A DNA stretch of 38,914 bases from Clostridia bacterium. Lineage in GTDB: Bacteria > Bacillota > Clostridia > Christensenellales > Aristaeellaceae. Location of the stretch: the NCBI GenBank assembly GCA_017460585.1, contig JAFUAR010000373.1:1-38914 (forward strand). The letters run 5' to 3'. The notes under the pieces were generated by a model. That model searched no databases and was not told the origin of the DNA. It saw nothing but the letters and a program-made list of their open reading frames with translations. Positions 2,847 through 20,329 of this stretch are shown here, piece by piece (position 1 is the first letter of the stretch; every line of letters begins with the position of its first letter). Made by a program: the position numbers and the translations under genes.

Positions 2847-2870
2847 ACCGAAGATAGGGAGGAAAATACA

Positions 2871-3164: not shown

Positions 3165-3169
3165 GCGCC

Positions 3170-3367: not shown

Positions 3368-3381
3368 CGGAGGGAAATAAA

Positions 3382-3708
3382 ATGGCAGAAGGAATTAGAG
3401 TATCAATACCTGCATTGCAGGATGCGATTAGCACCTATCAGCAGAAGCGCGACGAGCTCAAAATGGCCTATATGAGCATTAACGACGAAGTAACCAAGGC
3501 GCACTCTACTTGGACCGGCGACGCCGCCAACAAGTTTGTGGAGCAGTTCGCCCAGATGTACCGCAACCTGTCCGAGACCGATGTGCAGATGGAAGGCGCC
3601 ATTGCCAAGCTGAACAAGGTTATGGAAGAATACGAAGCCGTTGAAAGCCGCACGCGTTCCTTGATGGAGAGCGCTCAGGAAGGCACCACGCCCACCGTAT
3701 TCGGCTAA
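3382..3708 (+). CDS. WXG100-like small helical protein (108 aa), cassette 2 member A
   Basis: GGAGGG lies 7 nt upstream. Contains STWTGDAANKF (W-x-G), YEAVE near the C-terminus, and ends GTTPTVFG. Paralog of 1698..2024. Confidence 0.85.
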   Translation: MAEGIRVSIPALQDAISTYQQKRDELKMAYMSINDEVTKAHSTWTGDAANKFVEQFAQMYRNLSETDVQMEGAIAKLNKVMEEYEAVESRTRSLMESAQEGTTPTVFG

Positions 3709-3752
3709 GAAGAACGCCACTATTGTAAAGCACGAAGGGAGCGACTGCGAGC

Positions 3753-4043
3753 ATGGGCTCTGTAACGACGTATGATTCAACCGCCGTTCGGCGGGCGGCG
3801 CAGACCGTCGCAGGCAGCGCGGAGGTAATATCGACCTCGGCACAGCCGAAGCTGAACCGGATTCGCTCCACGCTGGGGGAAAACATGGAGGGCGATACGG
3901 CGCGCGCGCTTGCGGAAAGACTGCGTCAGGCGGATCAGGACATTGCGCGATTGCAATCCACGCTGGATGCGCTAAGTCGGGCGCTGTACCGATTCGCAGC
4001 GGAGATTGACGCGGCGGACGCGCGCATTAAGAACGCCCTGTAG
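3753..4043 (+). CDS. WXG100-like small helical protein (96 aa), cassette 2 member B (W replaced)
   Basis: GAAGGGAG lies 11 nt upstream. Paralog of 2056..2346, but the W-x-G position reads NMEGDTA. Confidence 0.75.
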   Translation: MGSVTTYDSTAVRRAAQTVAGSAEVISTSAQPKLNRIRSTLGENMEGDTARALAERLRQADQDIARLQSTLDALSRALYRFAAEIDAADARIKNAL

Positions 4044-4050
4044 CCTCCCT

Positions 4051-4094
4051 TTGAAGGGCATCCCCGTGAAAGCACGCGCAGGGATGCCCTTCAA
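4051..4094 (+). promoter_or_regulatory. Intercistronic stem-loop between the helper genes and the effector gene
   Basis: Perfect 14-bp inverted repeat TTGAAGGGCATCCC (4051-4064) / GGGATGCCCTTCAA (4081-4094) with a 16-nt loop. No U-tract follows. Confidence 0.5.
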
Positions 4095-4143
4095 ACGCGG
4101 GAGCGTTCACCGGCGAATTTGGGCAATGGAAGGAGAAACGGCA

Positions 4144-5832
4144 ATGGCGGACAAATTGCATATCACGACCGAGTGGCTGGAGGAAACGGCAACGCAGCTG
4201 AGTGAAGTGCAGCGAGCGCTCAACGACGCCGCGCGCCGTCTAGGCAACGTGACTCTGCGCGACGACGAAGGCGGCGAAATGACCTACCGGCTGAGCGGCA
4301 CCTTCGGCGGAAGGGGCGTGTCCGCCGGTACTGTGCGTCAGGCGATTACCGCGCTGCGCGCGGCGAGCGGAGCAGTGGGCGACGATGCCAACGATATATC
4401 CAAGGCGAGCCGCACCGCCGCGCGTCGTTTTGAAGACGCGCAGCGTGAAATCGAACGGCGGATACAGGAATTGACCGAGGGCATGGCGGCGAGCAACGCC
4501 GCAGGTCGCGGCGCTTCCGGAGCACGGTCGTCGGGAGAAAACAGAACGGGAGCGGACGAAGGCGACAGCACGAGCATACTGAATTGGATCAGCCCGAACG
4601 GGAAGCTTATTGATCCAAGAGCATTTATACTGATTCCGCCCCATGCACCGACCTATCCGTATAAATCAGTACTGATTCCAAGTGATTGGAAAGATGGATT
4701 TGATCCAGATGAGAAACAAACAAAACTAAAAGCGTTGACCATGCTGCTGCACTATCCGGAGGATACCAGCAAATGGACGAAGGAAATGCGCGAGGAATAC
4801 CTGAAAAAGCTCGCTAACACCTACACCTATACGGATGAAAAGGGCAGAACGAGCTACGTATTCGATGATGGCAGCGTGACCATTATGAGCGCAACCGGCG
4901 TGGTTTTGGCAACGACAAGGTACGCTTTTACACCCACCTCGCAAACGATGACGCGTACCGCGAGTGCGGGCGACGGCGGACCGTATACCAAACAGGAGGT
5001 TACGGTGGGTCCTTCTCAGCTCGGGTACCAAAACGACGATATGTTTGGTGTAAAGGATGCTGCGAAGAGCCTAAAAAAAGATATCGGAACACCGACGAAA
5101 AATTATTACCAGAATGGTCAAAAAGTAAAGGAAGTCAAAATGCCGGAACGTAGGGCGACGATTTACGAAACCGGCGTAGACTATTCAGATAGCGTATCTG
5201 TATTGCATACCGAAGGCGTCAGAAAGGATGGCAAGACGACCACCAGCGTAACTGCGGATGTGGGTAAAGCGAGCTTTTCCGCAGGTGGGCACGGCGGGTT
5301 TTATTCCTATAAAATAGATCAGGAGACCGGTCAAGCGAAACGCTATTTTGCTCCCGGAGTCAGCGCGGATGCGGGCGTGAGTATATCCGCGATTGAGGGG
5401 AAGGCAACCAAATCATACAGTGTGAACGATTCTGTGAAAGTAAACGGTGAAATCGGCACCAAGATGATGAGCGGAGGCGTAAAAGCGCAGGGTCAATTTG
5501 GATATGTCAACAAGTCGATTGCCGCCGGCGGCGGTGTGAGCGCAGAAATGAATGTTGCCGAAGTGAATGGAAGCGTTGGCGGCGAGGCATTTGGCGTAGA
5601 AGGCAAGATTGGCGGCAAGGTGACGTTTGGCGTTGGCGGACACGCGAACGTAGGTTATTACGATGGAACGTTTAAAGTCGATATCGGTGTGAGTGCAGGA
5701 ATCGGCGCGGGGGTCAGCATGGAAGTAAATGCTACCAAGCTGATTGATAATATTATTGAAGGTTCTATGAATTCTATGAATAATCTTATTACTTCCGCAC
5801 GAGGTACCGCAAGATCGCTGTTTAATTGGTAA
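4144..5832 (+). CDS. Putative T7SS-exported effector: helical N-terminal domain plus Gly-rich C-terminal domain (562 aa)
   Basis: ATG follows GGAAGGAG (4127-4134); the longer ORF-track start at 4006 overlaps the upstream gene and the hairpin. The first ~140 aa are helical. The C-terminus is rich in G-x-x-x-G-type runs such as AAGGGVSAEMNVAEVNGSVGGEAFGVEGKIGGKVTFGVGGHANVG and DIGVSAGIGAGVSMEV. It lies directly after two small helical partner genes. Confidence 0.7.
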   Translation: MADKLHITTEWLEETATQLSEVQRALNDAARRLGNVTLRDDEGGEMTYRLSGTFGGRGVSAGTVRQAITALRAASGAVGDDANDISKASRTAARRFEDAQREIERRIQELTEGMAASNAAGRGASGARSSGENRTGADEGDSTSILNWISPNGKLIDPRAFILIPPHAPTYPYKSVLIPSDWKDGFDPDEKQTKLKALTMLLHYPEDTSKWTKEMREEYLKKLANTYTYTDEKGRTSYVFDDGSVTIMSATGVVLATTRYAFTPTSQTMTRTASAGDGGPYTKQEVTVGPSQLGYQNDDMFGVKDAAKSLKKDIGTPTKNYYQNGQKVKEVKMPERRATIYETGVDYSDSVSVLHTEGVRKDGKTTTSVTADVGKASFSAGGHGGFYSYKIDQETGQAKRYFAPGVSADAGVSISAIEGKATKSYSVNDSVKVNGEIGTKMMSGGVKAQGQFGYVNKSIAAGGGVSAEMNVAEVNGSVGGEAFGVEGKIGGKVTFGVGGHANVGYYDGTFKVDIGVSAGIGAGVSMEVNATKLIDNIIEGSMNSMNNLITSARGTARSLFNW

Positions 5833-5835
5833 GCT

Positions 5836-6270
5836 ATGGAAAATACGCAGTGGATACTTCGCTGTGCGCTATGTCTGATGTCGGTGGTGTTTATCGTAAT
5901 CGGCATTGTACTGCTGGCGGGCAGAGATAATAGCGGACGAGGCTTTAAACGAACAAAAGCGCGAATTGTGGGCAGAACGACAGGTAAGGCGATTCACAGC
6001 GTTTGCCTATTTGTGGAATTTGAGGCGGATGGGCGGCTGGAGCGTCACAACTGCGCTGAATTTTCGGACGCGGATTTTGCATTGAATACTGGCGATGAGT
6101 TGGATATTTTCTATCGGCATGATTTGGTCGCGGGTGTAGATACGTGGACGGTGATTGCGGATAACGGAAGAAATGAATTGACCGCAAGAGTACGTGCTCG
6201 AACGATTTATGGAATATTGATGCTGATCATTGCACTGCTCATTTTAGTACTGACATTTCAATGGTTTTGA
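5836..6270 (+). CDS. Two-TM membrane protein, DUF3592-like architecture; candidate immunity protein (144 aa)
   Basis: ATG lies 3 nt after the effector stop. N-terminal TM is LCLMSVVFIVIGIVLLAG and C-terminal TM is IYGILMLIIALLILVLTF, with a beta-rich middle between them. Confidence 0.6.
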   Translation: MENTQWILRCALCLMSVVFIVIGIVLLAGRDNSGRGFKRTKARIVGRTTGKAIHSVCLFVEFEADGRLERHNCAEFSDADFALNTGDELDIFYRHDLVAGVDTWTVIADNGRNELTARVRARTIYGILMLIIALLILVLTFQWF

Positions 6271-6306
6271 TGTATAATGGATACAGTTTGATAGGAGGAA
6301 TTGGTT

Positions 6307-6606
6307 ATGACGATTACAGGACTGCTTCCGATCGGTTCCGTGGTACTGCTGAAGGACAGCACCAAGCGCGTGATGATTACGGGCGTATGTCAGGAAGGGA
6401 CTACGGAAAATGGCACCAAGCTGTATGATTATGTCGGCTGCGCGTTTCCGGAGGGATATTTGAGCGCGGATCAGAATTATCTGTTCAATAACGCGCAGAT
6501 TGATAGACTGTACGCCATTGGTTATCAGGATGAGGAATCGCTGCTGTTCAAAGAGCGTGTAGACGAGCTCATTGTTCAGCTTCGCGCGGAGCGCGGCGAA
6601 GAGTAA
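6307..6606 (+). CDS. DUF4176 family protein (T7SSb-associated)
   Basis: GGAGGA lies 8 nt upstream of ATG 6307. LLPIGSVVLLKDSTKRVMITG...YDYVGCAFPEGY...LFNNAQIDRLYAIGYQDEE matches the DUF4176 pattern found in firmicute T7SS loci. Confidence 0.85.
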   Translation: MTITGLLPIGSVVLLKDSTKRVMITGVCQEGTTENGTKLYDYVGCAFPEGYLSADQNYLFNNAQIDRLYAIGYQDEESLLFKERVDELIVQLRAERGEE

Positions 6607-6948: not shown

Positions 6949-7425
6949 CTACAATTCTCCTTCCCGCTCGGCGAGCGTTTGAAGCAGCGTCGCCATTGGC
7001 GGGTCGGGTTCCACAATATGACCGGATAAGTCCTTGTGATTGAGCGCATCCTGCAGCGCGCGGCGCGCGGCTGCCGCATCGCGTATCGGAGTGAGCGTAA
7101 TTGCGCCGGATTTGGGAAACTCTCCCAGCACGAACAGTGCGCTTCCGCGCCAGAGCACCACGGTGCGATCCGCGGCGCGGGCGGTCACGTGGTAGCGGCA
7201 ATGGGCGGCGTTGCTCAATAGCAGCGCGTTCAGGCGATTTACGCCGTAGCCCTCTCCAGCGGATAGCACGATGCCCGCCTCAATCAACTCCTCTGCCGCG
7301 TTTTGCGCCAGCGCCTCCGTGAGCTCCGGTAGCGGCGCGTCCGGCGGGTTGGGCAGGCGCAATATCGCCAGCAGCGTGGCGAGCTCAATGGGTTCATAGC
7401 GATAGCCGATGCTTTCCGCGTTCAT
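6949..7425 (-). CDS. Hypothetical soluble protein (158 aa), translationally coupled to the LytTR gene
   Basis: Its ATG overlaps the upstream stop (ATGA). No TM segment and no recognisable motif. Confidence 0.6.
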   Translation of the reverse strand: MNAESIGYRYEPIELATLLAILRLPNPPDAPLPELTEALAQNAAEELIEAGIVLSAGEGYGVNRLNALLLSNAAHCRYHVTARAADRTVVLWRGSALFVLGEFPKSGAITLTPIRDAAAARRALQDALNHKDLSGHIVEPDPPMATLLQTLAEREGEL

Positions 7426-8168
7426 GCGCCGTTCCCCCTTTGCGTCATTTGTTGCCTGAGTCCGTCGCGGCTCGAACGCGATATGGGCAGGCGTTCGCCG
7501 CTCTCCAGCGTGAGTTCCATCGCGCTGAAATCCGTTTCCCGAATGCGCTGTACGTTCACCACATAGGAGCGGTGGCAGCGGTAGAACTGTTCCGGCAGGT
7601 CGCCTAGCAGCGTGCTCAGCGTGGCGCGCACGGTGATAGTCTGCCTGCGAGTGTAGATATTCAGCTTTTTATCCAGCGCCTCGATATATCGAATTTGATC
7701 GAACGGTATGCGGTGGGTGGTGGCGCCTACGTTGAGCAGCAGCGTGCCCTGCGGCGCCTGCTCGGAGTTGAGGGCATCGTAATCCAAAACGATGCGGGTG
7801 AGGCATTCCTCCATTTGCGCCTGTGGAAAGGGCGTGAGCAGTATACCCGCGGGGCGCGAGCAGACGCCCAGCACCGCGCCGAGATCATCCAAATCGTGAA
7901 TCAGGTACACGGTATAGCTATCGCGGCTGCGGCGCATCAACGCTTCTCCCAGCTGCAGGCACTTTTCCCGATTATTTTTGGGGCGAAGCGTGCAGCCGAA
8001 TATGGCGAGCACAATGCCGGTTTCCGCTTGTAGATAGCGCTCCATGTCGTCTACGGAGGAGGTCGTTGCCGCGATTTTGAGCGCAAAACGCTCGGACAGC
8101 GCTTCCAGCTGAGCGAGAAGCATTGCCCGAATGCGTTCGTTGGGCTCGCAAATCATCACAGAGAGCAT
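7422..8168 (-). CDS. LytTR-family DNA-binding protein with a degenerate (pseudo-)receiver domain (248 aa)
   Basis: C-terminal THRIPFDQIRYIEALDKKLNIYT...FYRCHRSYVVNVQRIRE is a typical LytTR pattern. The N-terminal receiver-like fold has EP in place of the acidic pair (VMICEPNE), no Asp at the phospho-acceptor position (IVLAIFGC) and T in place of the conserved Lys (LLTPF). GGGAGG RBS present. Confidence 0.8.
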   Translation of the reverse strand: MLSVMICEPNERIRAMLLAQLEALSERFALKIAATTSSVDDMERYLQAETGIVLAIFGCTLRPKNNREKCLQLGEALMRRSRDSYTVYLIHDLDDLGAVLGVCSRPAGILLTPFPQAQMEECLTRIVLDYDALNSEQAPQGTLLLNVGATTHRIPFDQIRYIEALDKKLNIYTRRQTITVRATLSTLLGDLPEQFYRCHRSYVVNVQRIRETDFSAMELTLESGERLPISRSSRDGLRQQMTQRGNGA

Positions 8169-8201: not shown

Positions 8202-11200
8202 TTACTCTTCTTCCGCGTCCGTGAGCGGCACGCGAATTTGCGTCACCTTGCCGTCGGCGAGCATATAGCCGTAGCCGCTCGGCAGCGCCTTGCTGCGGGA
8301 TTGCAGGGGCAGACCCGCGCCGATGCCCAGCGGGTCGTTTTCGTTGAATTTACCGCCCAGCGCGATGCCGCGCTGCTGCGCAATGAGCGATTTGAGCGGT
8401 TCGGACCGTTCTTGCATACGCTCCGCCGAAGACATGGCGATAAATAGGAACAGGTTGTATAGGTCGCCCTTGCCCGCCATTTGCCCAAATACATCGCAGA
8501 TGTAATTCTTTGCGGGAACATTGCGGTTGGGATCCTGCCCCGGGGCGAGCTCCGCCGCGGTCTTGACCTGCGGTACCGGTTCGCCCGCTTCCTGCGCGGC
8601 GGGGGCCGCCGCTTCCGATTCCTTTGCCAGCATCACGGGGCTCTTGACAAAGCGCGGCGCGTTGAAATCGCGCGGCAGGCGCTCGGCGTTATCAATCAAT
8701 ATGACGCACGGCTTGAATTCCAGCGCCTGCTTGCGCGCCGCCGCCTTGCCCTGCGCCAGCGCCGCTTCACGCTTTGCTCTGCGCTTGCCAGGATATTCGC
8801 GCACGAACATATCCATGAATATGGCGATTTCGTCCTCGGTTGCATACAGGTGGGCGCCAAGCTCGTCCGCTAAGGTTTTCCAGTTCGCATCGCCGATAAT
8901 ATGAATATCCGCTCCGCGCTCGGCGAACAGTCGCGCAGTCAGCTTGAGGAAGTTGGTCAACCCGCTCTTCTTGGGACCGGTGACGTACATGGAATAGTTC
9001 TTCTCCAAATCCAGCGTTGCCAGACTGCCCTTGGTCATATCGTAACCGATGGGCAGCTGATAGGGGCTGCGCTGCGCATCCGTAAAGCCGTCGACCACGC
9101 GGAACTGCTCCAAGGTGGGTTCTTCCGGAATTCTGGGAATTCTTGCGGGGCGAGCGCCCTTCCAAGCTTCGTCCATCGCCTTGGCTTCGGCAATGATGCG
9201 CGCGCTGCGCTCTACGTCGGTCAAGCCTTCAAACGGCGGGAAAGCCGCGTTCAGGCAGTAGGGTTCAATATCGTTCAAGTCGGCAAACGGCGCGTCGGGT
9301 GCGTCAATGCTCACGCCGCCCAGCGCAATTTGCAGCTCGTAGGGCACGTTGTCTTCTCCCACCAAACCGAGCGCGCGACCCGGGGTCGCCATGAGCGGCG
9401 GCATATCGTAGGGTACGCGTTTGCCGAGTACGTCCGTGTAGTCCGCGCGTTCGCGCAGCTGCAGCGCGATGCCGCTAAAGAAGGAGTGCAGGCGCCCGGG
9501 AATTTCGTTCTTCGCCAGCGCGGTAACAATGAAATGAATGCCGCGCCCGCTGCCCTCGCGCAAGAGCTGTTGAATGCGCGCGGTGTAAAAATCGTCATTG
9601 GCGAACATATTCTTGAGCTGCTCGTAGCGATCTACAAATACCACGATCGCCGGAACGCCCTTTTTGTTTTCCAAACGGCAGGCGCGGTTGTATTCAATGA
9701 AGCTATCCGTGGAGACCTGCGCGAACATATCGCTTCTGCGCTGCTCCTCCTCGAAGAGCATATTGATAAAGCGCTTGATCTCAATCACATCCTGCTCAAA
9801 GGCGATATCGCCCACCTGCGGGAACGCGATGAGGTTGCCCAGCGTCTGGCTGGTCAGGCTCAGTATGTACATTTGCACGTGTTCCGCATCGTACTGGCTG
9901 GCGATGGCGGTTACGATGGATTGCACGGCGGTGGTCTTTCCCGTGCCCGCCAGACCCACGATCATTAAATTGCGCATCTGGGTCAGGTTCACGGTAAAGG
10001 GAATATAGCGCTGCTGCGCTACGTCGTCCGCCATGCCCAGCAGGAACTGAACGCCTTCCGGCGCGTTGGCGTAGTCATTGCCGCGGCGGAAAAGCGCCTG
10101 CGCCATGGGCATATGACCGAAGTAGAGCTGGGAAGTGAGCTGCGGAAGCCACATTTGCTTGGTATGCAGCAGATCGTGTTCGCCGGCGACCTCGCGAATG
10201 CGCTCCAGCACGGCGTCCATTTGAGTTTTTTCCTTGCGTTTTTCTTCTACGCTCTTGCGCTTTTTCGCCACGCGGATGGCTTCGCCGGTATCGCCCAACA
10301 GGTGCGGCATTTCCTCCGCCCTCGGTTCGTTGGGGTTGTAGGCGAGTCCGGAATAGCTGGTTTGCACCTGCTCGAACAGCTCGTCGTTGCCGATTTGAAT
10401 GAAGCAGCGCCCCATGCCCTTGATGTAGGCCGCGTCGGGTCGCTTGAGCATTTCCATGGAATCGCTGCGGGTCTGCACGCGCAGGCACAGGTGGAAGCGG
10501 GAGTTCGCCCATATTTCATCGCTGACGGAGTTGGAAGGCTTCTGGGTAGCCAATATCAGGTGGACGCCCAGCGAACGACCTACGCGCGACGCGCTGACCA
10601 GCTCGCGCATGAAATCCGGCTGGTCGCTCTTGAGCTCGGCGAATTCGTCAACAATAATAATGAGGTGCGGCAGCTTCGGTTCGGCGGGATCGCTTCCAAA
10701 GAGCTGCGTGTAGTCGTTGATGCTGCTCACATCGTGCGCCTTAAATATGCGCTCGCGGCGATGGATTTCGCCGTTGAGCGAAGCCAGCGCGCGGTTGATC
10801 ACCAGCTCGCCCTGCAGGTTATCGATAATGCCAGCCACATGGGGCAGCGTGCGGAAGGCGTCCGCCATGCCGCCGCCCTTGTAGTCGATCAGTATAAACT
10901 GCACCTGATCGGGGCTGTAGTTGAGCGCCAGAGAGAGAATATAGGTTTGCAGCATGACCGATTTGCCCGAACCTGTAGTGCCCGCGATGAGCCCGTGAGG
11001 TCCGTGGTATTTATCGGAAATATCCAGTATGAAGGGCTGGGAGCCCGCGGCGTAGCCTATGGTGGAGCGCAGTCCGTCGTAGGTGTGGTTTTCCGTCCAC
11101 ATACGCCACACATCCAGATCTTCGGTGCGGCGCACGCCGTAGATATCGAGGAACGATACCAGCGAGGGGATCGCGGCGTTCTCCGCCGCGTCGCGCACGC

Positions 11201-13100
11201 GCAACGGCGCGATCTGCGAGGCGAAGGTTTGAAGCAGGTTGCGGTTGGGTACCTCGAAGTCGATCTGAGTGGTTTCGCCTTCGGAGGTGTGCAGGTAACC
11301 CGGCTTGGCGGCTACGTTGAATATCAGCCTGCATTCCTTGGGCAGCATTTCCATGCTGGGCGCGAGCATGATGAGCGTCATGCCCAGACGATTGGTGAGC
11401 AGCTGCTTGAGAATCGGCTCGTTTTCCAGCAGGCGATTGTCCGTGCAGAATATAATGTAATGCGGCAGCGGGCGCGCATCCTCGCCTTGCTCCTCGTCCT
11501 GCGAGGAGGAATGCTCCTCCATGCTGGAGCGGCGCATGGTCAATACGTCGCTTACGTGGCTCATTACATCATGAATGGCGCTGGGGCGAGATACGACCAT
11601 ACGCATTTCGCGGTCCTCGCTGGCGAACACGTGCGGCAGCCAGCGCGCCCAGCTCCACTGGGATACTGTGGTTTCGCGCGTGAGCACGGCGATGCGCACA
11701 TCGTGGTAGGAGTGCAGCGAGGCGATTTGCATGAGCAGCCCTTGCGCGAACAACGTGGCCTCGTCGCCGCCCAGTATGCCGACCACGGATTCGGAGCGCA
11801 GCCCTACGGTATACGGCGCGTCGGCGATAATGGAGTATACGTTTTTCAGCCGCTCCGGTTCGTTGCGCAGCGGATCATCTATAATGGAAAGCTTCTGTTT
11901 CGGTACTTCGATTTCGCTGGGCAGGTTTACCTGACCAATGCCCAAACGCACGTGCAGAAAGTCCGAATGCGTGGGCATACGATTCCACAGGCGGTAGGTA
12001 TTGTCTGTGGGCAGCGTAACGCATTCGCCAATGTTGGGATAGGTGTTGACCAGCCGATCGTATTCCTGATTGTTGAGTCCGCGCAGCTGCTGCTCCGTCT
12101 CCTCAATGTATTGTTGATACATTTGTATGCGGCGGGTTTCGTTTTCCGCCTCCTGACGGGCGCGGTAGCGCCGGTTGATGACGCCCCACATGACCGCCAA
12201 AGCCGAGGATGTACCCACCATGACCAGACCCGACGCCATCATAGCGGCGCTTCGACCGGCGGCAACGCCCACCATGGTGCCCGCCATCATGGGCAGCATC
12301 ATAGTGGCGGAGGGACCCAGCTGCTGCCACATGGGCGCGGTCTCCTTCGCCTGCTTGGCGATGGGCGGTTCAATTTCAATGGATTCGGAGTGAGGCTTTT
12401 GCAATATGCGCGGCGCGCGGTGGTATTCGCGGTACAGACTGGGAAGGTGCTCCGGCGGGTTCTGCATGGGGCGAATGGCTTCCGGCTGCGCCTTTTGCAG
12501 CTTGACCTTCTGCAAACTGGCAATCTGATTGAATGCCAGTATGTTGCCCAGATAAATCATTTTCAGACCGGAAGGGAAGGTGAGCACATCGCCAAAGGTG
12601 ATGCGCACGGTGTTGTTCATAATGCGGCGACCGTTCAGATAGGTGCCGTTTACGGATTTATCGGTATATTCGCAGCTGGCGCCGTTGGCGGTGATGTAGC
12701 CGTGCATACCGGAAATATTCTGGTCGATATCGGTCACGACGCACTGCTCGCTGCGCCCGATGGTCACCGATCCGCCATGGAAGGCGTACTTCACGAAGCT
12801 GAGCGATTTGCGGTCCAGCTTAGTGGGAATAATGCTGATGCTGCCGTTGTAGGGCGTGTGCAGCGTATAGCTTTCCTCCAGCGCGATGGGGCGCTCGTTG
12901 CCCGAGGAGCCGCCCGCCCAGCGGAAGCCCGGCGGAGGCAGAAGGAATATGCTCCCGCCCAGCGCGCGCACCTGAAACACGCAGTCCGAGGGCCAGCCGG
13001 ATTCATCCTGCGCGATGGTGGTTTGGCTGGTCCAGTTTTCCGCGTCCGGAAAGTATACGTCCTTAAAGCGGTCGCCGAAAAATAACCAGGCTGCGTACAT
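8202..13100 (-). CDS. essC: EssC / YukB-type T7SS FtsK-SpoIIIE ATPase (1632 aa)
   Basis: N-terminal tandem FHA region (IGRSEQC...ISGMHG...SVNGTYLNG), then two TM helices (about aa 256-308), then three P-loop domains. Walker A motifs are GTTGSGKS (10959-10982), GLAGTGKT and a degenerate GPKKSGLT (8955-8978). Walker B is LIIIVDEF. GAGGAGGAG RBS present. Confidence 0.95.
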   Translation of the reverse strand: MYAAWLFFGDRFKDVYFPDAENWTSQTTIAQDESGWPSDCVFQVRALGGSIFLLPPPGFRWAGGSSGNERPIALEESYTLHTPYNGSISIIPTKLDRKSLSFVKYAFHGGSVTIGRSEQCVVTDIDQNISGMHGYITANGASCEYTDKSVNGTYLNGRRIMNNTVRITFGDVLTFPSGLKMIYLGNILAFNQIASLQKVKLQKAQPEAIRPMQNPPEHLPSLYREYHRAPRILQKPHSESIEIEPPIAKQAKETAPMWQQLGPSATMMLPMMAGTMVGVAAGRSAAMMASGLVMVGTSSALAVMWGVINRRYRARQEAENETRRIQMYQQYIEETEQQLRGLNNQEYDRLVNTYPNIGECVTLPTDNTYRLWNRMPTHSDFLHVRLGIGQVNLPSEIEVPKQKLSIIDDPLRNEPERLKNVYSIIADAPYTVGLRSESVVGILGGDEATLFAQGLLMQIASLHSYHDVRIAVLTRETTVSQWSWARWLPHVFASEDREMRMVVSRPSAIHDVMSHVSDVLTMRRSSMEEHSSSQDEEQGEDARPLPHYIIFCTDNRLLENEPILKQLLTNRLGMTLIMLAPSMEMLPKECRLIFNVAAKPGYLHTSEGETTQIDFEVPNRNLLQTFASQIAPLRVRDAAENAAIPSLVSFLDIYGVRRTEDLDVWRMWTENHTYDGLRSTIGYAAGSQPFILDISDKYHGPHGLIAGTTGSGKSVMLQTYILSLALNYSPDQVQFILIDYKGGGMADAFRTLPHVAGIIDNLQGELVINRALASLNGEIHRRERIFKAHDVSSINDYTQLFGSDPAEPKLPHLIIIVDEFAELKSDQPDFMRELVSASRVGRSLGVHLILATQKPSNSVSDEIWANSRFHLCLRVQTRSDSMEMLKRPDAAYIKGMGRCFIQIGNDELFEQVQTSYSGLAYNPNEPRAEEMPHLLGDTGEAIRVAKKRKSVEEKRKEKTQMDAVLERIREVAGEHDLLHTKQMWLPQLTSQLYFGHMPMAQALFRRGNDYANAPEGVQFLLGMADDVAQQRYIPFTVNLTQMRNLMIVGLAGTGKTTAVQSIVTAIASQYDAEHVQMYILSLTSQTLGNLIAFPQVGDIAFEQDVIEIKRFINMLFEEEQRRSDMFAQVSTDSFIEYNRACRLENKKGVPAIVVFVDRYEQLKNMFANDDFYTARIQQLLREGSGRGIHFIVTALAKNEIPGRLHSFFSGIALQLRERADYTDVLGKRVPYDMPPLMATPGRALGLVGEDNVPYELQIALGGVSIDAPDAPFADLNDIEPYCLNAAFPPFEGLTDVERSARIIAEAKAMDEAWKGARPARIPRIPEEPTLEQFRVVDGFTDAQRSPYQLPIGYDMTKGSLATLDLEKNYSMYVTGPKKSGLTNFLKLTARLFAERGADIHIIGDANWKTLADELGAHLYATEDEIAIFMDMFVREYPGKRRAKREAALAQGKAAARKQALEFKPCVILIDNAERLPRDFNAPRFVKSPVMLAKESEAAAPAAQEAGEPVPQVKTAAELAPGQDPNRNVPAKNYICDVFGQMAGKGDLYNLFLFIAMSSAERMQERSEPLKSLIAQQRGIALGGKFNENDPLGIGAGLPLQSRSKALPSGYGYMLADGKVTQIRVPLTDAEEE

Positions 13101-13150: not shown

Positions 13151-13732
13151 TCAGTAGTGCGCGTATTCCACGTTGAACGCGATGCCAGCGATTTGTAGGC
13201 TGTCGCCCTGACGCATGACCCGGCGCTCGCCCTTGGGCAGGCGTTCGTTGTTGAGCCAAGTGCCGTTGCGCGAGCTGTCGGTTACGTAGCAGAGCTTCTC
13301 CTGTGCGTCGTAATCGATGGTGAGATGCCGACCGGATACGTATTCATCGTGAATCTGGAAATTGCAGCGCTCTGATTGACCGATCACGAAGGGGCTGAGA
13401 TTGACGGAAATAGAGTATTGATTGGAAGCGTTCAACCCTACGAGCGTTACATAGGTGCGCTGCGCATCCAAGTGAACGGGCGGGGTATCCGAGCGCGAGC
13501 TGGGTATATTGCGTTCGCGCGGCGCTTCCTTTTGAAACGCCTGAAACAGCGCGGGCTTGCTGCGCTTCAACGCGCCGATGCCCACCACCAGCGCCAATAT
13601 GAGCAATAGTGAAACGAGGGGCGATCCCAAAAGCAATCCCGCTACAATAATGATGAACAATATCGGCAGCAGAACCGCGATGAGCAGCAGTATCGCCTGT
13701 TTGCGCGAGGGATTGGGATCGGTATTGGGCAT
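13151..13732 (-). CDS. Two-TM membrane protein with C-terminal cytoplasmic FHA domain (193 aa)
   Basis: TM segments AILLLIAVLLPILFIIIVAGLLLG and LVSLLLILALVVGIGAL. FHA region reads FVIGQSERCNFQIHDEYVSGRHLTI...SSRNGTWLNNERL, with Q where the canonical GR arginine sits. Confidence 0.85.
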   Translation of the reverse strand: MPNTDPNPSRKQAILLLIAVLLPILFIIIVAGLLLGSPLVSLLLILALVVGIGALKRSKPALFQAFQKEAPRERNIPSSRSDTPPVHLDAQRTYVTLVGLNASNQYSISVNLSPFVIGQSERCNFQIHDEYVSGRHLTIDYDAQEKLCYVTDSSRNGTWLNNERLPKGERRVMRQGDSLQIAGIAFNVEYAHY

Positions 13733-13781: not shown

Positions 13782-14945
13782 TCAGTAATCGATCTTGATT
13801 AAATGCTCGCTGATTCGAATGGTGGAGCCCTTATGCAGCACGCAGGAGGTATTGCTGATCTGCTTGCCGTCTACAATGGTGCCGTTCGCGGAGTAGTCGC
13901 GCAGCATGAGCTCCCTGCCTTGATAGAATATTTCGCAATGCTTTCTGGAAATGCCGCGGTCGTCCATATTCAACGGGAAGGAGCCTACGTTTCTGCCGAT
14001 CTTGATTGTGTTTCCAATGGGTCGGGAATACTGTTCGGTATGCCCGTGATAGGTAATTTCAAATTGGAGCTCTTTTTCGTTAATAAAGGCGTTTCTGCCG
14101 CCCTTGCGCTGGGAGCCGTTTGAACCGAAGAAATACACCAGCGCGAAAATGATGGCGGCGATCAGCACTATGGCGATGAGTCCCGCCGCGAAGCGGGGAA
14201 GCTCCAAGCCGAATACATCACTATCTTCCGTGAGCCATGCCCGCGCCTTTTCCGTGCCGCTCAAAGGAGCGGGCGTGGGGCTGGGCTCCGGCGTGGGTTC
14301 GGGTTCCGGAGTAGGCATGGAGTTCCAGTCGTCGCGGGAGAGTATGGTCGCCTGAATTTCCGGGGTCAACCCCTTGTTATCCTCGCGTTGGTCGTACGCC
14401 AAAGGATTATAGCGGAAGAAATCGTCCAGCGCTTCTATGGTCGCTTGGTCGTAGATATCGTTCTGCATTCCTTCCTTTATATAGCCCAGCTCCGCAAGCT
14501 TTTTTTGTATGGGCCAAACGCCGCTGCCGCCGTAAACGATGCGCGAATAGACGGGCGCGTCGGAAGCGTCCGGTTCCGGTGTAGAAAGGTTTTGAATGAG
14601 ATTTTGATAGTAGTCGAGCTTTGCCCAAGTCTCCTGAAGAATGCCGCCTTCGTCGTATACCAGCCCCTCGAGGTTGCGGTTGGTATCGCAGCAATTTTTA
14701 ACGGCGTACATGGTCTGGTCGTCCAGAGTGGGGTCGCCCAGCGATTCTACATCGACCGTGGAAAGGTAATAACCGTGCGTGTACAAAAATTCTTTGAGCT
14801 TCATCAGCTCCGGTTTGGCGTTGGAGTACTTTTCCACCGCATATTCTTTCGCGGCAATGGCGGGAAATGAGGTTCCGCAGAAAATGAAAACGAGCAGCAT
14901 GACGGCAATCAGCCGCTTCGCATTTCGATAAGCGTTTTGAAGCAT
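13782..14945 (-). CDS. Signal peptide, 2 peptidoglycan-binding-like repeats, PT linker, TM and cytoplasmic FHA domain (387 aa)
   Basis: Start trimmed to MLQNAYRNAKRLIAVMLLVFIFCGTSFPAIAAKE (GAAGGGG RBS). LKEFLYTHGYY and IQKKLAELGYIKEG..IYDQATIEALDDFFRYN resemble PG_binding_1. Then PTPEPEPTPEPSPTPAP, TM LIAIVLIAAIIFALVYFF and FHA IKIGRNVGS...ISRKHCEI...SANGTIVDG. Confidence 0.85.
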   Translation of the reverse strand: MLQNAYRNAKRLIAVMLLVFIFCGTSFPAIAAKEYAVEKYSNAKPELMKLKEFLYTHGYYLSTVDVESLGDPTLDDQTMYAVKNCCDTNRNLEGLVYDEGGILQETWAKLDYYQNLIQNLSTPEPDASDAPVYSRIVYGGSGVWPIQKKLAELGYIKEGMQNDIYDQATIEALDDFFRYNPLAYDQREDNKGLTPEIQATILSRDDWNSMPTPEPEPTPEPSPTPAPLSGTEKARAWLTEDSDVFGLELPRFAAGLIAIVLIAAIIFALVYFFGSNGSQRKGGRNAFINEKELQFEITYHGHTEQYSRPIGNTIKIGRNVGSFPLNMDDRGISRKHCEIFYQGRELMLRDYSANGTIVDGKQISNTSCVLHKGSTIRISEHLIKIDY

Positions 14946-15006
14946 GGAAAAGACCCCTTCGTATAAAAAAGGTAAGAATATGGCGTTATTAAGGTATATC
15001 AGGCGT

Positions 15007-15035
15007 ATTATAGCATAAAAACAATTAACACACAA
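15007..15035 (-). promoter_or_regulatory. Candidate sigma-A promoter of the FHA-essC operon
   Basis: Minus strand reads TTGTGT (15035-15030), a 17-nt spacer, then TGc-TATAAT (extended -10; TATAAT at 15012-15007). This is about 60 nt upstream of ATG 14945. Confidence 0.55.
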
Positions 15036-15076: not shown

Positions 15077-15105
15077 TTGACGATACCCCCTACTTGCGGT
15101 AGAAT
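15077..15105 (+). promoter_or_regulatory. Candidate sigma-A promoter of the 23.5-kb surface-protein / FHA / PP2C / kinase operon
   Basis: TTGACG (15077-15082), a 17-nt spacer, then TAGAAT (15100-15105). This is about 68 nt upstream of ATG 15173. Confidence 0.6.
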
Positions 15106-15172
15106 GATAAACAGTAAAAAGGGCGAAGTATGCTTTTTTTCGAAACGGAGAATTTGGAAAGAGGGATTCTAC

Positions 15173-18100
15173 ATGACACTCAAGCGGTTGTTCAGGTTGC
15201 TTCTGGCGGCTGTGCTGGTCGTTGCCATCGCAGTGCCCGCGGGGCTCGTGTTCGCGGAGGGCGACGAGGGCGCGCAGCGCCACCGTCTGCAGTCTGTGGT
15301 AGAGGCGGAGAAGAAGGAAGGGACGAAAAAGTCCAGCCGTTCTGAGCCTCAGAACGTACAGGCTAAAGCGCCTACCGAGGTAGATCCGGACGCGGAAGAG
15401 ATTGCTTCAGAGCAAACGAGCTCTTCCACAATTTATATCGTTCCCAATAGCGCATCCAAGCAGCCGGGAGACGTGGATCCCATGCTCACGGCAATGGTGC
15501 TTGGCGCGGACGGCGCGGACGTGCAATATGTGCTGTATCGCGCTGAAGGCGAAGAGATTGGTCAATACCCCATTTTCGTAACGGTGGTATCGGCTCCAAG
15601 CGGCTACAATGTGGTCGCGCAGCAGGGCGTATTCACCATTGGCGATGCGGAGGATTCCCTCTCGATCTCCTCTGGCAGTACGCATCTCACTTATAACGGC
15701 AAGCCGCAGTCTTACGCGGAATATCGCGCAGTGTATAACGGCACCGAGCTCAAGCCGGATGAATCCGGTTTGGTGTATACGCTGCCCACTGGCGATACGC
15801 TGACCATCAGCAAGGCGGCTACGCTCACCCATGTCAATGAAAGCGCGGCTGCAAATAATACCTTCTCTTATACCCTGAGCAACAAAGAACTCGAAGCGAA
15901 GGTGCATGTGGCATATGGCACAATCACCATTGATCCCGTGCCGCTCACCATTACCGCCAGAAATCAGGATTTCCTGCTCGTAGAGCCCGGCTCGACCGTG
16001 GGCGAGAATTTGGCGACCTATGATGATCCTGAGGTGATCGAAAAGAAGATCATTGTGGAAGGTCTGCAGAACGGCGATACGGTTACGAAGGTGACCTTGG
16101 ACGGTCTGGCTTCCTTCCACGGCAGCTATGAGCTGCGTGTGATCGACGCGGAGGTTTCCGCACCCGATGGCGATTATGAAATTGAGCTGCTTCCCGGCAA
16201 GCTGAATGTTGTAACCGAGATTCCGGATATCCGCATCTCCTCCCTCTCCACCAGCGATCTTTCCGACGCGGAGCAGGCAGGCTGGGTGTACGATGGCAAG
16301 GCGCATTCCCTCAAGCACGCGATCGTGACCTACGGCGGCGAGACGCTTGCGGGCAACGACAATACCTATGTGCTGCCCACCGGCGATACGCTGACGCTCA
16401 CCGGCTTTGCCGCGATCACCAACGCGGGCACGAAGGAAAATACCTTCACCTATACCGTAACGAATCCCGATTTCTATGAAGGACATATTTCCGTAGATAC
16501 CGGCATCCTCACGCTGCGCAAGGCCAATCTGAACGTCAGCGCCAACCGCGTAAAGGAATACAACGGCTCCTATCAGGGACCGAGCGCGGATATGAGCATT
16601 GAAGAGCTGCGCGAGTGGGTCACCCTGAACGGCATTGGCGAGGGAGATCAGCTCTCGGCGGCGAACGTGACCATGGCGGAAGAAGGCGGCGTTCAGGCGG
16701 GTACATACGCGCTGCAGGTCAGCAACATTCGCATTTCCCGCGATGGCGAGGACGCGACCGACAATTACGATATTACCGTAAGCGACGGCGTGCTCACCAT
16801 ACTTCCCCGACCGGTAACGCTGACTCTGAGCAGCACGATTTCGCTCTTCTACGGTGAGAATGATACCGTAAAGGCGAGCGATTACGCTTCTAATATCACC
16901 ATTTCCTCCAACGGCGAGGCTCTGGAGGATGCGCTGACTGCCGAGGTGCTGGGCAACACTACCCTTACGCCCGCCTATCCCAACGGTTACACCGTGGGCA
17001 CCTTCGGCGCGATTGGCAGCTGCGCGAACTTTGATATTACCGTAGACGGCAGCATTCAGATTTTGGATGATACCGGTTTGCGCATTGGCGGAATTGATTC
17101 CCGCGACGCGAGTATTACGCTGAGTCGCGAAAATGTGAAGCTGCCCATCACCTATTCCGTGAGCGTAGCGCTGCCGGAGGGCAAGTACTGCGTGGATTCC
17201 GCGAAGAGCTACGATAATGTCACCGTAGAAACGGGCGCTTCCATTTCCGTAGGAAGCTATCACTACAGCGCTTCCGGACAGAGCTGGGAAGCGGGTCTTC
17301 CCGCGGGCACGGTCATTACCGTAACCCCGATCGTGGAAGGCGAAAGCCTGAAGTCCGCGACTCAGACTGTGGCGCAGAGCAGCGCGACCTTGGCGGCGAG
17401 CATTGAAAAGCCGTTCATTGGTCAGAGCCTCACGCTGGATGTGGAAGTGAACGTTCAGTCTAAGCAGGCCGAGGTTGTAAAGATCGAACTGGTCGAAGGC
17501 AGTATTTCCAAGACCTTCTACGAGACGGTTGGCAATAGCAAGACGGTGCATCTCACCAATTTGGGCGATTTCCCCGATGGCGAAGATATTAAGGCGACTG
17601 TTTCCCTGTTGGACAGCAACGTAAACCTGATCGATGTAGCCGCGGTAACGATCTCCGGTATTTCCAAGTATACCGGCAGCTTTGGCGGCACGGTATCGTT
17701 TGAGAACCGCGGAGATGTAGCGACCATCACCTTGGAGCAGGATGCTGTAGAGATTACCAGCGTGACGATTGACGGGTTTAGTTCTGAAACCTCTGAGCCG
17801 AGTGGTTCCGGTAAGAACTGGACGTATGCCTTGGAGAATTGGAAGAACAATCCGACCAACCTGCCCCCGAAGAGCTCTACCGCCACCGTAAAGTATGTAG
17901 ACAAGTATGGCAATGAAGGCACCGCTACCGGTACCTCTACCATGAGCACCGGCAAGAGCATTACCATTACCTACGCGCAGCCCACCATGGTGCGCGAGAA
18001 CGGTCGACTGGTCGGCATGGAGCTGCGCCTGTCCGGTCAGGGCACCGCGTACGAAAAGATGACCCTGAACGTAAACGGTCGCTCCTATCCGGTGCAGATT

Positions 18101-19108
18101 AGCGGCAGCCGCGGCACTTACGATCTGGAAGCGCGTGGTCAGTGGAGCAAGGATGTCAGCCTGGATGATATCGATCTTGCCGGCGATTCCGTGCGCATCA
18201 GCGCCAAGTACGACAACATCAATGGTTCCGGCTCCGCCGATCCCATCACCTACCGCAAGCTTTACCAGCCCACGCTGGCGGGTTCTCCCGAGCTCATGCG
18301 TTATGATATGGTCTACGGCTTTGCCGATCCCGACGCGACCATCATTATTGAAGTGACCCGCGAGGTGGATGGTCAGACGCAGGTTACCCGCTACGATAGC
18401 GAAACCAATAAGGATATGTTCCAGACCGGCATTACCGGCGGAACGAAGTACTACGTATTCGAGCTTCCGGAGCGCTTCCAGCCCGGCGACCGCGTGGATG
18501 TGTGGTATCGCGACGCGAATGGCGTAGAGGATCTCGCCTCTAAGTATACCTTGATCATTCCCGAAGAGGTCTATGGTCAGACGATGGCGGAGGCGCTTGG
18601 CGCCAATATCATCGATTGGAGCGCGAGCGAGGGACAGAGCGCGGAGCATCACTTCGTCGTACCGGTAAAGGTGGACGAGCTGACCGCGGCGGAAGACCAC
18701 AGCATGACCGTGCCGATTCTGGCGTTCGACGGCTATGTGGTGGGTCACCTCACCCTCACCTTGGAGGGCTCTGAACTCAAGACCACCTGCGATCTGGATC
18801 CGGAATGCGTATACGACGGCGCGGGATATATCCTCCGCTATTACGATACCAAGCCCACCATCGCTCAGCTGGCGGCGGATACTTCCATGAACGACATGAA
18901 CGTGCCGATCGATGTAACGCCTTATGGCAATACCCTGTGGGTATACGCCGGCTTTGAGGTTGAGGTCGATCCGAGCCGCGTGGTATCCATGAACGATTTC
19001 GTGGCGCTCTACGCCGAAAAGAACGAGGAGAGCAAGGTGAATATCGATCCTATGGATCCTGAACTGTACGCCTTGTATATGCAGTTCCAGCAGGTAGAGG
19101 ACGATTAA
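15173..19108 (+). CDS. Large secreted repeat protein with MBG-like and Ig-like modules (1311 aa)
   Basis: Start trimmed to MTLKRLFRLLLAAVLVVAIAVPAGLVFAEG (signal peptide; GGAAAGAGGGA RBS). Recurrent (Y/N)(D/N)GK...Y(T/V)LPTGDTLT(I/L) and ...GxYxI...(D/A)NYDITVxxGxLTI blocks are typical of MBG-type adhesin repeats. No C-terminal TM or sortase motif was seen. Confidence 0.8.
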   Translation: MTLKRLFRLLLAAVLVVAIAVPAGLVFAEGDEGAQRHRLQSVVEAEKKEGTKKSSRSEPQNVQAKAPTEVDPDAEEIASEQTSSSTIYIVPNSASKQPGDVDPMLTAMVLGADGADVQYVLYRAEGEEIGQYPIFVTVVSAPSGYNVVAQQGVFTIGDAEDSLSISSGSTHLTYNGKPQSYAEYRAVYNGTELKPDESGLVYTLPTGDTLTISKAATLTHVNESAAANNTFSYTLSNKELEAKVHVAYGTITIDPVPLTITARNQDFLLVEPGSTVGENLATYDDPEVIEKKIIVEGLQNGDTVTKVTLDGLASFHGSYELRVIDAEVSAPDGDYEIELLPGKLNVVTEIPDIRISSLSTSDLSDAEQAGWVYDGKAHSLKHAIVTYGGETLAGNDNTYVLPTGDTLTLTGFAAITNAGTKENTFTYTVTNPDFYEGHISVDTGILTLRKANLNVSANRVKEYNGSYQGPSADMSIEELREWVTLNGIGEGDQLSAANVTMAEEGGVQAGTYALQVSNIRISRDGEDATDNYDITVSDGVLTILPRPVTLTLSSTISLFYGENDTVKASDYASNITISSNGEALEDALTAEVLGNTTLTPAYPNGYTVGTFGAIGSCANFDITVDGSIQILDDTGLRIGGIDSRDASITLSRENVKLPITYSVSVALPEGKYCVDSAKSYDNVTVETGASISVGSYHYSASGQSWEAGLPAGTVITVTPIVEGESLKSATQTVAQSSATLAASIEKPFIGQSLTLDVEVNVQSKQAEVVKIELVEGSISKTFYETVGNSKTVHLTNLGDFPDGEDIKATVSLLDSNVNLIDVAAVTISGISKYTGSFGGTVSFENRGDVATITLEQDAVEITSVTIDGFSSETSEPSGSGKNWTYALENWKNNPTNLPPKSSTATVKYVDKYGNEGTATGTSTMSTGKSITITYAQPTMVRENGRLVGMELRLSGQGTAYEKMTLNVNGRSYPVQISGSRGTYDLEARGQWSKDVSLDDIDLAGDSVRISAKYDNINGSGSADPITYRKLYQPTLAGSPELMRYDMVYGFADPDATIIIEVTREVDGQTQVTRYDSETNKDMFQTGITGGTKYYVFELPERFQPGDRVDVWYRDANGVEDLASKYTLIIPEEVYGQTMAEALGANIIDWSASEGQSAEHHFVVPVKVDELTAAEDHSMTVPILAFDGYVVGHLTLTLEGSELKTTCDLDPECVYDGAGYILRYYDTKPTIAQLAADTSMNDMNVPIDVTPYGNTLWVYAGFEVEVDPSRVVSMNDFVALYAEKNEESKVNIDPMDPELYALYMQFQQVEDD

Positions 19109-20257: not shown

Positions 20258-20329
20258 GCTGCGTACGGGGTAAAGCACCCATGGCGCAACCAGAGGAACC
20301 GATGAATGGATAAGGGAAGGGAAGCTGGA

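Follow-up and report, generated by a model that had tools for sequence, protein, structure and literature searches.

How the motor of a type VII secretion system (T7SS) is switched on is poorly understood, and in T7SSb, the best-studied subtype, the forkhead-associated (FHA) domains of the motor ATPase are phospho-blind. ATPases with a real phosphothreonine (pThr) pocket, encoded beside a kinase and a phosphatase, would make it possible to study directly how type VII secretion is gated post-translationally, and the locus described here raises the question of whether its EssC-like ATPase is such a protein. The locus lies on contig JAFUAR010000373.1 of Clostridia assembly GCA_017460585.1 (family Aristaeellaceae), and the window referred to below is the whole stretch analyzed, 38,914 nucleotides (nt) in length. 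A preliminary description of this sequence had proposed that an FHA domain of the ATPase keeps the full pThr-binding signature, that published EssC and YukB domains lack it and dock a pseudokinase, and that a real kinase in the locus together with the lack of EssB points to genuine pThr-dependent control of the ATPase. We find this interpretation reasonable and partly supported, and consider pThr-dependent control of the ATPase likely as judged from sequence.

An EssC-type ATPase with a canonical FHA2 pocket

The minus strand of the window from 8202 to 13100 translates to a protein of 1632 amino acids (aa) whose start, MYAAWLFF, is kept among homologs. The protein scores 964 bits against the EssC equivalog model TIGR03928 (cut-off 778) and matches FtsK_SpoIIIE (PF01580) with a Pfam E-value of 1.5e-55, and by sequence it is an EssC-type T7SS ATPase. 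A hydropathy scan picks out residues 285-308, in a region that aligns with the transmembrane (TM) region of TseC and TsiC. An AlphaFold2 model of residues 1-235 comprises two beta-sandwich domains (predicted local distance difference test score, pLDDT, 90.7; predicted template modeling score 0.80). When this model was compared with the PDB using Foldseek, the tandem-FHA N-terminal modules of T7SSb EssC proteins (EssC-N) ranked first (Bacillus subtilis YukB, 9qks_H; G. thermodenitrificans, 5fwh; S. aureus, 1wv3), and because of this ranking we regard the N-terminal module as homologous to EssC-N. These were followed by the single FHA domains of DgcB, FhaA, GarA/OdhI, Rv1747 and EmbR, many of which were solved with phosphopeptides or phospho-partners. 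The first domain, FHA1 (residues 1-97), gave no FHA match in a Pfam scan and is modeled as beta-rich with pLDDT above 90. Judged from alignments and model together, FHA1 is degenerate and the second domain, FHA2, keeps a canonical pocket.

Residues 108-185 of the ATPase correspond exactly to nucleotides 12546-12779 and read HGGSVTIGRSEQCVVTDIDQNISGMHGYITANGASCEYTDKSVNGTYLNGRRIMNNTVRITFGDVLTFPSGLKMIYLG (also given as HGGSVTIGRSEQCVVTDIDQNISGMHGYITANGASCEYTDKSVNGTYLNGRR...). The Pfam FHA model (PF00498) matches residues 112-175 with an E-value of 4.6e-10 and 40.2 bits against a cut-off of 20.7. The N-terminal 235 residues aligned with 26 homologs (alignment A1, 27 sequences) served as the family profile. 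This profile matches solved pThr-binding FHA domains, namely Dun1 (2.7e-11), Rv1747 FHA-2 (1.2e-10), CHFR and Rad53 FHA1 (1.8e-8), and against PDB sequences it retrieved no T7SSb EssC at E-values up to 1. A phmmer search of PDB sequences with the single sequence of residues 1-250 gave marginal FHA matches (E-values of 0.026-0.08). The profile alignments with Rad53 FHA1, Dun1 and Rv1747 place the GR, SxxH and NG motifs in the canonical columns. We take G115-R116 to be equivalent to G69-R70 of Rad53 FHA1, S130 and H133 to S85 and H88, and S149-V-N151-G152 to S105-T106-N107-G108. In the model, G115 ends strand 111-115 and R116 opens the loop that follows it, the SxxH motif sits in the loop preceding strand 134-139, and S-x-N-G occupies the loop between strands 142-147 and 153-155. 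Foldseek aligns the model with Rv1747 FHA-2 (6cah) with a TM-score, normalized to the target, of 0.64 and a root-mean-square deviation of 2.1. Translation, Pfam match, profile alignment and loop placement all bear out the full G-R, S-x-x-H and N-G signature, and the FHA2 pocket looks canonical.

The T7SSb domains differ at these positions, as the preliminary description had stated. An hhalign comparison of A1 with the N-terminus of B. subtilis YukB, for which the YukB sequence was text from optical character recognition (OCR) of the supplement of PMC11217815, shows the pThr residues replaced (93.6% probability): YukB has S-S where GR would be, A in place of S130, S in place of H133, and a gap/T at N-G. 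In an hhalign comparison of the same family profile with S. aureus EssC-N, only part of FHA1 aligned, at 13.8% probability. Zoltner 2016 (PMC4925161), citing Tanaka 2007, likewise states that the residues for pThr recognition are absent from EssC-N. The docking of a pseudokinase is also on record: the YukB FHA region binds the pseudokinase domain of YukC (Tassinari 2022), and a 2025 cryo-electron microscopy study places YukC on FHA2 of YukB, with the FHA domains stabilized by YukD.

Conservation of the pocket

Homologs of the ATPase number 236 at E-values below 1e-10. Those that carry names are proteins from metagenome-assembled genomes (MAGs) of Clostridia, Oscillospiraceae, Lawsonibacter and Candidatus Ornithocaccomicrobium, every accession obtained for the ten clusters that were queried is that of a GenBank MAG protein, and seven related genomic loci are from gut MAGs (goat, buffalo, rabbit and others), Candidatus Faecivicinus among them (related loci are cited below by handles beginning with L and library proteins by handles beginning with P). 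Across 114 full-length homologs, G115 is kept in 100%, S/T130 and S149 in 98% each, G152 in 97%, N151 in 90%, R116 in 89% and H133 in 80%, the other 20% having Q at the last position. The complete six-residue signature is present in 54 of the 56 closest homologs. Within these 56, G115, H133, N151 and G152 reach 100% and R116 96%, and the six pocket residues rank among the best-conserved of the FHA domain, in which the majority residue has a mean frequency of 0.62. This pattern suggests that the pocket is under purifying selection in the 56 closest homologs.

The locus kinase and phosphatase

The preliminary description had stressed a real kinase and the lack of EssB, and both observations hold. 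The receptor Ser/Thr kinase of the locus looks active from its sequence, because its glycine-rich loop (GRGNSGV), the AxK lysine (ALK), HLDIKPDN, DFG and APE are all kept; it is of the non-RD type. The possibility that it is an EssB-like pseudokinase was rejected, as there is no YukC Pfam match and the catalytic motifs are intact. No Pfam or NCBIfam match to EssB/YukC, EsaA or EssA was obtained in any open reading frame (ORF) of the window or in syntenic loci. The adjacent PP2C/PPM phosphatase matches the Stp1/IreP-type NCBIfam model at 5.8e-48, which is below the equivalog cut-off. Kinase and PP2C genes occur in all six distinct loci that have enough flanking sequence (the window, L003, L005, L010, L012 and L013). 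Locus L003 encodes the kinase, PP2C, both receptor-FHA proteins, both FHA proteins upstream of essC, LytTR and RCC1, and L008 has the same gene order as the window. In L010 the kinase has DWG in place of DFG.

A candidate pThr ligand

Many FHA domains share pT-x-x-I/L as a typical ligand pattern. Both receptor-FHA proteins of the locus carry G-T-[VT]-R-[IL] twice in the cytoplasmic linker that joins TM helix and FHA domain. An exhaustive search of the representative library with the cytoplasmic tail of the VWA-FHA protein gave top ranks that were mostly unrelated multi-FHA proteins, and a word-indexed homolog search with the same tail gave a single match. Nine library matches span the linker as a single stretch, and the paralogous Big-FHA protein of the window itself (P0188) is among them. 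Each of the nine shows [SG]GT[VI]R[ILV] shortly upstream of its FHA domain in between one and three complete copies, the number being two or three in eight. The motif is also found in the L002 and L003 homologs, and a relaxed form, TV[RA]M, in L013. Because of its pT-x-x-I/L ligand shape, the repeated [SG]GT[VI]R[IL] motif is a candidate phospho-acceptor and a new lead as a candidate pThr ligand, one that could be phosphorylated in the linker and bound by an FHA domain.

Gene neighborhood of the ATPase

Coordinates of the locus features are collected in Table 1. The minus-strand operon runs from the gene with peptidoglycan (PG)-binding, TM and FHA segments through the small TM-FHA gene, essC, lytTR and the 158-aa gene to the yukD-like gene; all point the same way, and no gap between them exceeds 50 nt. 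The gene for the PG-binding FHA protein is conserved in L001-L005, L007-L009, L012 and L013. The 193-aa FHA protein has a TM-like stretch at residues 8-58, and its orthologs lie upstream of essC in L001-L009, L012 and L013. Orthologs in L008, L012 and L013 have G-R where this protein has G-Q, an arginine codon being one nucleotide away; the G-Q may reflect either a genuine loss of the arginine that contacts pThr or an error in the MAG consensus. LytTR genes lie downstream of essC in L001-L011 and L013, and homologs of the 158-aa protein are found in L001-L006, L008 and L009. Both genes are missing in L012, though they are kept directly downstream of essC in most related loci. The sub-threshold YukD match is supported by synteny, as L008, L010 and L012 each have a YukD gene of 83 aa close downstream of essC.

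Table 1. Features of the T7SS locus, with positions in the window
Feature	Position	Strand	Evidence
EssC-like T7SS ATPase, 1632 aa: tandem FHA, membrane segment, FtsK/SpoIIIE ATPase domains	8202-13100	-	TIGR03928, Pfam
FHA1-like beta-sandwich, residues 1-97, degenerate, without pThr motifs	12810-13100	-	AlphaFold2 model
FHA2, residues 100-192, canonical FHA domain	12525-12803	-	Pfam, family profile, Foldseek
G115-R116	12753-12758	-	codon-level coordinates, profile alignment
S130-G-M-H133 (S-x-x-H)	12702-12713	-	codon-level coordinates, profile alignment
S149-V-N151-G152	12645-12656	-	codon-level coordinates, profile alignment
Hydrophobic membrane segment of EssC, residues about 255-310	12171-12338	-	hydropathy scan
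FHA protein with PG-binding-like ectodomain, TM helix, cytoplasmic FHA (GR, SRKH, NG)	13782-15035	-	Pfam FHA 1.5e-13; PG_binding_1 weak
Membrane-anchored FHA protein, 193 aa, directly upstream of essC (G-Q, S-G-R-H, N-G)	13151-13732	-	Pfam FHA 1.4e-15
LytTR DNA-binding protein, 33 nt downstream of essC	7422-8168	-	Pfam LytTR 1.7e-24
158-aa protein, 4-nt overlap with LytTR gene	6949-7425	-	no Pfam or NCBIfam match
YukD/EsaB-like ubiquitin-fold protein (TsxB), 83 aa	6671-6922	-	Pfam YukD E 5e-4, below cut-off
Substrate arm: six WXG100-type genes, 608-aa protein, DUF4176 gene	1197-6606	+	Pfam
Six WXG100-type genes	1197-1661, 1698-2024, 2056-2346, 2871-3164, 3382-3708, 3753-4043	+	Pfam
608-aa protein, EspC/WXG-like N-terminus, Gly-rich C-terminal half	4006-5832	+	Pfam
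DUF4176 gene	6301-6606	+	Pfam
MBG surface protein, 1343 aa, first gene of divergent operon	15077-19108	+	Pfam MBG_2 4.4e-8; signal-like stretch residues 31-63
N-terminally anchored RCC1 beta-propeller protein, 371 aa	19142-20257	+	Pfam RCC1_2 5.1e-20; TM stretch residues 38-66
VWA-Big-FHA receptor-like protein: signal/TM, extracellular VWA and Big_6, TM helix, cytoplasmic linker, canonical FHA	20306-23386	+	Pfam, topology
GTVRI repeats in VWA-Big-FHA linker	23003-23017, 23045-23059	+	sequence motif
Big-FHA receptor-like protein: signal/TM, Big_6, TM helix, linker, canonical FHA	23446-26460	+	Pfam, topology
GTTRI and GTVRL in Big-FHA linker	26080-26094 and 26137-26151	+	sequence motif
Ig-like protein, 1376 aa, N-terminal signal, C-terminal TM helix	26475-30605	+	weak Big_13, Big_7; TM-like residues 22-51, 1322-1355
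PP2C/PPM Ser/Thr phosphatase, 317 aa	30627-31580	+	Pfam PP2C_2 3.8e-13
Receptor Ser/Thr kinase, 2357 aa: N-terminal cytoplasmic kinase domain, TM helix 334-363, ~2000-aa Ig-rich ectodomain	31610-38683	+	Pfam Pkinase 2.8e-32

Upstream lies the substrate arm. The 608-aa gene is preceded by WXG100 genes and followed two genes downstream by the DUF4176 gene, with homologs in L008 and L010; this region is probably a T7SS substrate/toxin module, and the annotated TTG start of the 608-aa gene is probably too far upstream. Compared with the gene set that accompanies essC in T7SSb (EssB, EsaA, EssA, EsaB and EsxA), the window shares YukD and WXG100 only. The seven-gene plus-strand operon (15077-38683) that diverges from the essC operon encodes almost only surface-exposed or single-pass products, and the window ends 231 nt past its last gene, that of the kinase. 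The RCC1 gene is conserved in L002, L003 and L008, and the 1376-aa Ig-like protein has the topology described for TsxI (TsdI/TseI). In L010 (positions 1-4938), a T7SS locus of the P0099 type adjoins resolvase/recombinase, ALP_N (actin-like segregation) and MobA/MobL relaxase genes, and it may be carried on a mobile element.

A proposed mechanism and its alternatives

From the fold, motifs, gene set and conservation described above, we infer pThr binding, the pairing of kinase with substrates, and an effect on secretion. We hypothesize that FHA2 is a genuine pThr reader that links the ATPase to marks which the locus kinase writes and PP2C erases, and so gates assembly or activity of the system; we hold the chances of this to be somewhat better than even. 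The receptor kinase would place pThr marks on cytoplasmic segments of system components and the phosphatase would remove them, and binding of a mark by FHA2 would allow the motor to be recruited, assembled or activated only while the kinase is on. Gating of the kind exerted by PpkA, PppA and Fha in type VI secretion systems (T6SS) would then replace the phospho-independent docking of FHA2 on a pseudokinase in T7SSb. The most likely ligands would be the [SG]GT[VI]R[IL] repeats in the linkers of the VWA-Big-FHA and Big-FHA proteins, and the FHA domains of these receptors could read the same marks, giving a multivalent cluster.

Several observations weigh against a pThr-reading ATPase. The equivalents of Rad53 N86 and T106 are G131 and V150 in EssC and vary across homologs, and the 193-aa FHA protein has G-Q in place of G-R. 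The complete signature is present in only 14 of 58 distant relatives (39-47% identity); in the distant sub-clades (P0059-P0120; L010, L012 and L013) R116 is replaced by S, H133 by Q and N151 by F, L or H. The kinase, PP2C and FHA proteins are nevertheless still present in the three distant loci examined (L010, L012 and L013), of which L010 has G-S, L012 S-x-x-Q and L013 L-G in its ATPase with kinase and PP2C retained. Because these relatives replace R, H or N yet keep the kinase and PP2C, an intact ATPase pocket is not obligatory, and by sequence it is dispensable in some lineages. In T7SSb, moreover, the FHA2 homolog needs no phosphorylation to bind a protein of kinase fold, and a retained motif is no proof of phospho-dependence. 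A strict rule that the pocket is intact if and only if the locus has a kinase was rejected, given that R-to-S, H-to-Q and N-to-L variants still have kinase and PP2C. Since kinase and PP2C persist beside variant ATPases, the phospho-signaling set is a stable part of the system and the intact ATPase pocket is not universal.

A rival view is that FHA2 docks its partner independently of phosphorylation, as a constitutive scaffold for the cytoplasmic domain of the kinase or for some other protein, for example the YukD-like one, with the canonical residues an ancestral leftover or serving fold stability. In structure the N-terminal module comes nearest to T7SSb EssC-N and YukB, whose FHA domains contact YukC and YukD without phosphorylation, the sub-clades that lose R116, H133 or N151 keep the kinase, and the kinase shares its topology with EssB, a likeness that Garrett et al. 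pointed out for TscD (PMC11217815). We nonetheless think phospho-independent docking unlikely: T7SSb EssC, which does dock in this way, has lost the three motifs (0/0/21%), the family profile scores best against FHA domains shown by experiment to bind pThr, and unless the pocket is under selection it is difficult to see why 54 of 56 close relatives, whose overall identity is about 50-70%, should retain the six residues.

Alternatively, the FHA2 pocket could work and read marks placed by a housekeeping kinase of the PrkC/IreK type on targets outside the locus, the kinase and receptor cluster being a separate surface-signaling neighbor. The kinase, PP2C and receptor genes do lie in the divergent operon and not in that of essC, gene order between essC and the kinase varies among loci, and Garrett et al. 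cite IreK-dependent regulation of a T7SSb (PMC11217815). Against a housekeeping writer stand the co-occurrence of kinase and PP2C with essC in all six flanked loci at ~40-65% ATPase identity despite rearrangements, the two FHA genes within the essC operon, and Table S1 of PMC11217815, which ties the motifs to a locus kinase; we consider such a writer distinctly improbable. Least probable of all, and in our estimation very unlikely, is that phospho-signaling acts mainly on transcription through the LytTR protein with the EssC FHA domain irrelevant as an output, for although lytTR directly follows essC in most loci, the N-terminal 140 aa of its product gave no receiver-domain match, no histidine kinase was seen in the window and the Esr1 pathway of Actinobacteria acts transcriptionally (PMC13622651), this leaves the conservation of the ATPase pocket unexplained, L012 keeps the kinase, PP2C and FHA set without a LytTR gene, and the two outputs can coexist, PMC13622651 describing both transcriptional and post-translational branches.

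Comparison with published T7SS subtypes

Garrett, Higginson and Palmer 2024 (PMC11217815) defined subtypes T7SSc to T7SSj. In Table S1 of that paper, the GR/SxxH/NG motifs occur in 0/0/21% of TsbC sequences (EssC of T7SSb; 100 sequences), which have no locus kinase, compared with 100/98/90% for TsdC, 98/99/90% for TseC and 100/100/100% for TsjC, all of which have one; these are the three FHA-bearing ATPase types with a kinase among the six tabulated. The preliminary description had allowed that typical EssC proteins might conserve the residues too, and this holds for the non-T7SSb subtypes TsdC, TseC and TsjC but not for T7SSb EssC. Phospho-control of assembly or activity was explicitly raised for T7SSd, T7SSe and T7SSj (PMC11217815). 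Because the correlation of motif with kinase and the phospho-control hypothesis are both published there, the central idea is not new, contrary to what the preliminary description implied, and the concept of a pThr reader in T7SS ATPases is one that the literature already contains. For experiments that followed up T7SSd, T7SSe or T7SSj, a literature search returned only the original paper.

The window shares with T7SSd, T7SSe and T7SSj an N-terminal FHA domain with GR, SxxH and NG, a locus-encoded single-pass Ser/Thr kinase with a PPM phosphatase and no EssB, separate FHA proteins, a YukD-like protein and WXG100 genes. It also holds most of what is listed for T7SSe, including the FHA-motif ATPase, kinase, PPM phosphatase, YukD-like protein, paired WXG100 genes and a TseI-like Ig protein. 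However, TseJ, a cytoplasmic protein with an N-terminal DUF6382 and, at its C-terminus, an FHA domain, is encoded at all T7SSe loci (PMC11217815), whereas DUF6382 gave no match in the window even at E-values up to 10, and all four extra FHA proteins of the window are predicted to be membrane-anchored with N-terminal parts unlike TseJ. Relative to the three subtypes, the extra conserved genes of the window are those for LytTR, otherwise a T7SSi feature (PMC11217815), the 158-aa protein, the four membrane-anchored FHA proteins and the RCC1 and MBG surface proteins.

Comparisons of the ATPase with OCR-derived representative sequences from the supplement of that paper, by BLAST and a neighbor-joining tree, gave no clear nearest subtype. 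The N-terminal 330 aa score 102 bits with the TseC representative at ~25% identity, and TsiC, likewise ~25% identical, follows at 98 bits. The ATPase blocks are ~45% identical to those of several subtypes, with D1 nearest TshC and TsiC and D2 nearest TseC, so that similarity to TseC is no closer than to TshC, TsiC or TsgC. In the neighbor-joining tree, which is crude, the clade of the window and a separate distant P0099/P0113 clade each fall outside every published representative. None of the recovered accessions from the ten clusters is among the WP_ accessions of Supplementary Data 5 (PMC11217815).

T7SSb EssC/YukB (PDB 1wv3, 5fwh and 9qks) has the same architecture of tandem FHA domains, membrane segment and FtsK-type ATPase as the protein of the window; a TIGR03928 score above cut-off, the best structural match of the N-terminal module, and YukD and WXG100/LXG-type neighbors are further points in common. 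The two differ in that the T7SSb domain lacks the pThr residues and binds the EssB/YukC pseudokinase, whereas in the window the residues are intact, EssB, EsaA and EssA gave no match, and the kinase looks active. New in this work are another lineage known from MAGs alone, with distinct accessory genes, decay of the pocket in sub-clades despite the kinase, and a conserved candidate phospho-acceptor motif. The window adds a widespread, gut- and rumen-associated and so far uncultured lineage to the class with pocket plus kinase, and it supplies in the GT[VI]R[IL] linker motif a candidate ligand that can be tested with peptides; culturable hosts of T7SSe or T7SSj are the better experimental entry points.

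Comparison with other phospho-signaling systems

In T6SS, secretion is gated post-translationally by the threonine-phosphorylation pathway of PpkA, PppA and Fha. As in the mechanism proposed here, a receptor kinase (PpkA), a PP2C phosphatase (PppA) and an FHA reader (Fha1/TagH) control assembly of a secretion machine, but the machine is a different one and the reader is a separate scaffold, not fused to the motor ATPase. The NCBIfam model of TagH gives weak, sub-threshold matches to FHA domains of the window. The pathway is cited for Agrobacterium in PMC11217815. Fusion of FHA domains to a membrane ATPase under Ser/Thr-kinase regulation is seen in Rv1747 of M. tuberculosis, which is among the best sequence and structure matches of FHA2; Rv1747, however, is an ABC exporter with two FHA domains and no T7SS ATPase, and its pThr sites lie in its own inter-FHA linker.

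The Esr threat-sensing pathway (bioRxiv 2026, PMC13622651) combines a beta-propeller filament sensor with MoxR, vWA and a transglutaminase, and further has a kinase, a phosphatase and an FHA output that is phosphorylated on Thr; 40% of its loci adjoin esx genes, and it is reported to be effectively confined to Actinomycetes. As judged from deletion of the sensor gene esrA2, the actinobacterial Esr2 pathway, which is linked to Esx, controls Esx secretion post-translationally, and EsrG, the FHA output protein, is sometimes fused to EccC (PMC13622651). The right arm of the window resembles this set in its surface beta-propeller and Ig proteins, VWA, Ser/Thr kinase, phosphatase and FHA domains, and differs from it in that its VWA domain, predicted to lie outside the cell, is fused to an FHA domain; MoxR/AAA_3 and transglutaminase gave no match in the window, so the complete Esr set is not present there. 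We tentatively suggest, as a possibility that we rate as doubtful when all its parts are taken together, that this Oscillospirales-type locus represents an unclassified T7SS subtype in which a sensing array would gate the ATPase through FHA2, the array being composed of the giant kinase, PP2C, the anchored beta-propeller protein and four membrane-anchored FHA proteins, the two largest with candidate phospho-acceptor repeats. Such a system would be a Bacillota counterpart of the Esr-Esx logic, and, if this were true, the contact between FHA2 and the pseudokinase in T7SSb would be a degenerate relic of a kinase-FHA circuit.

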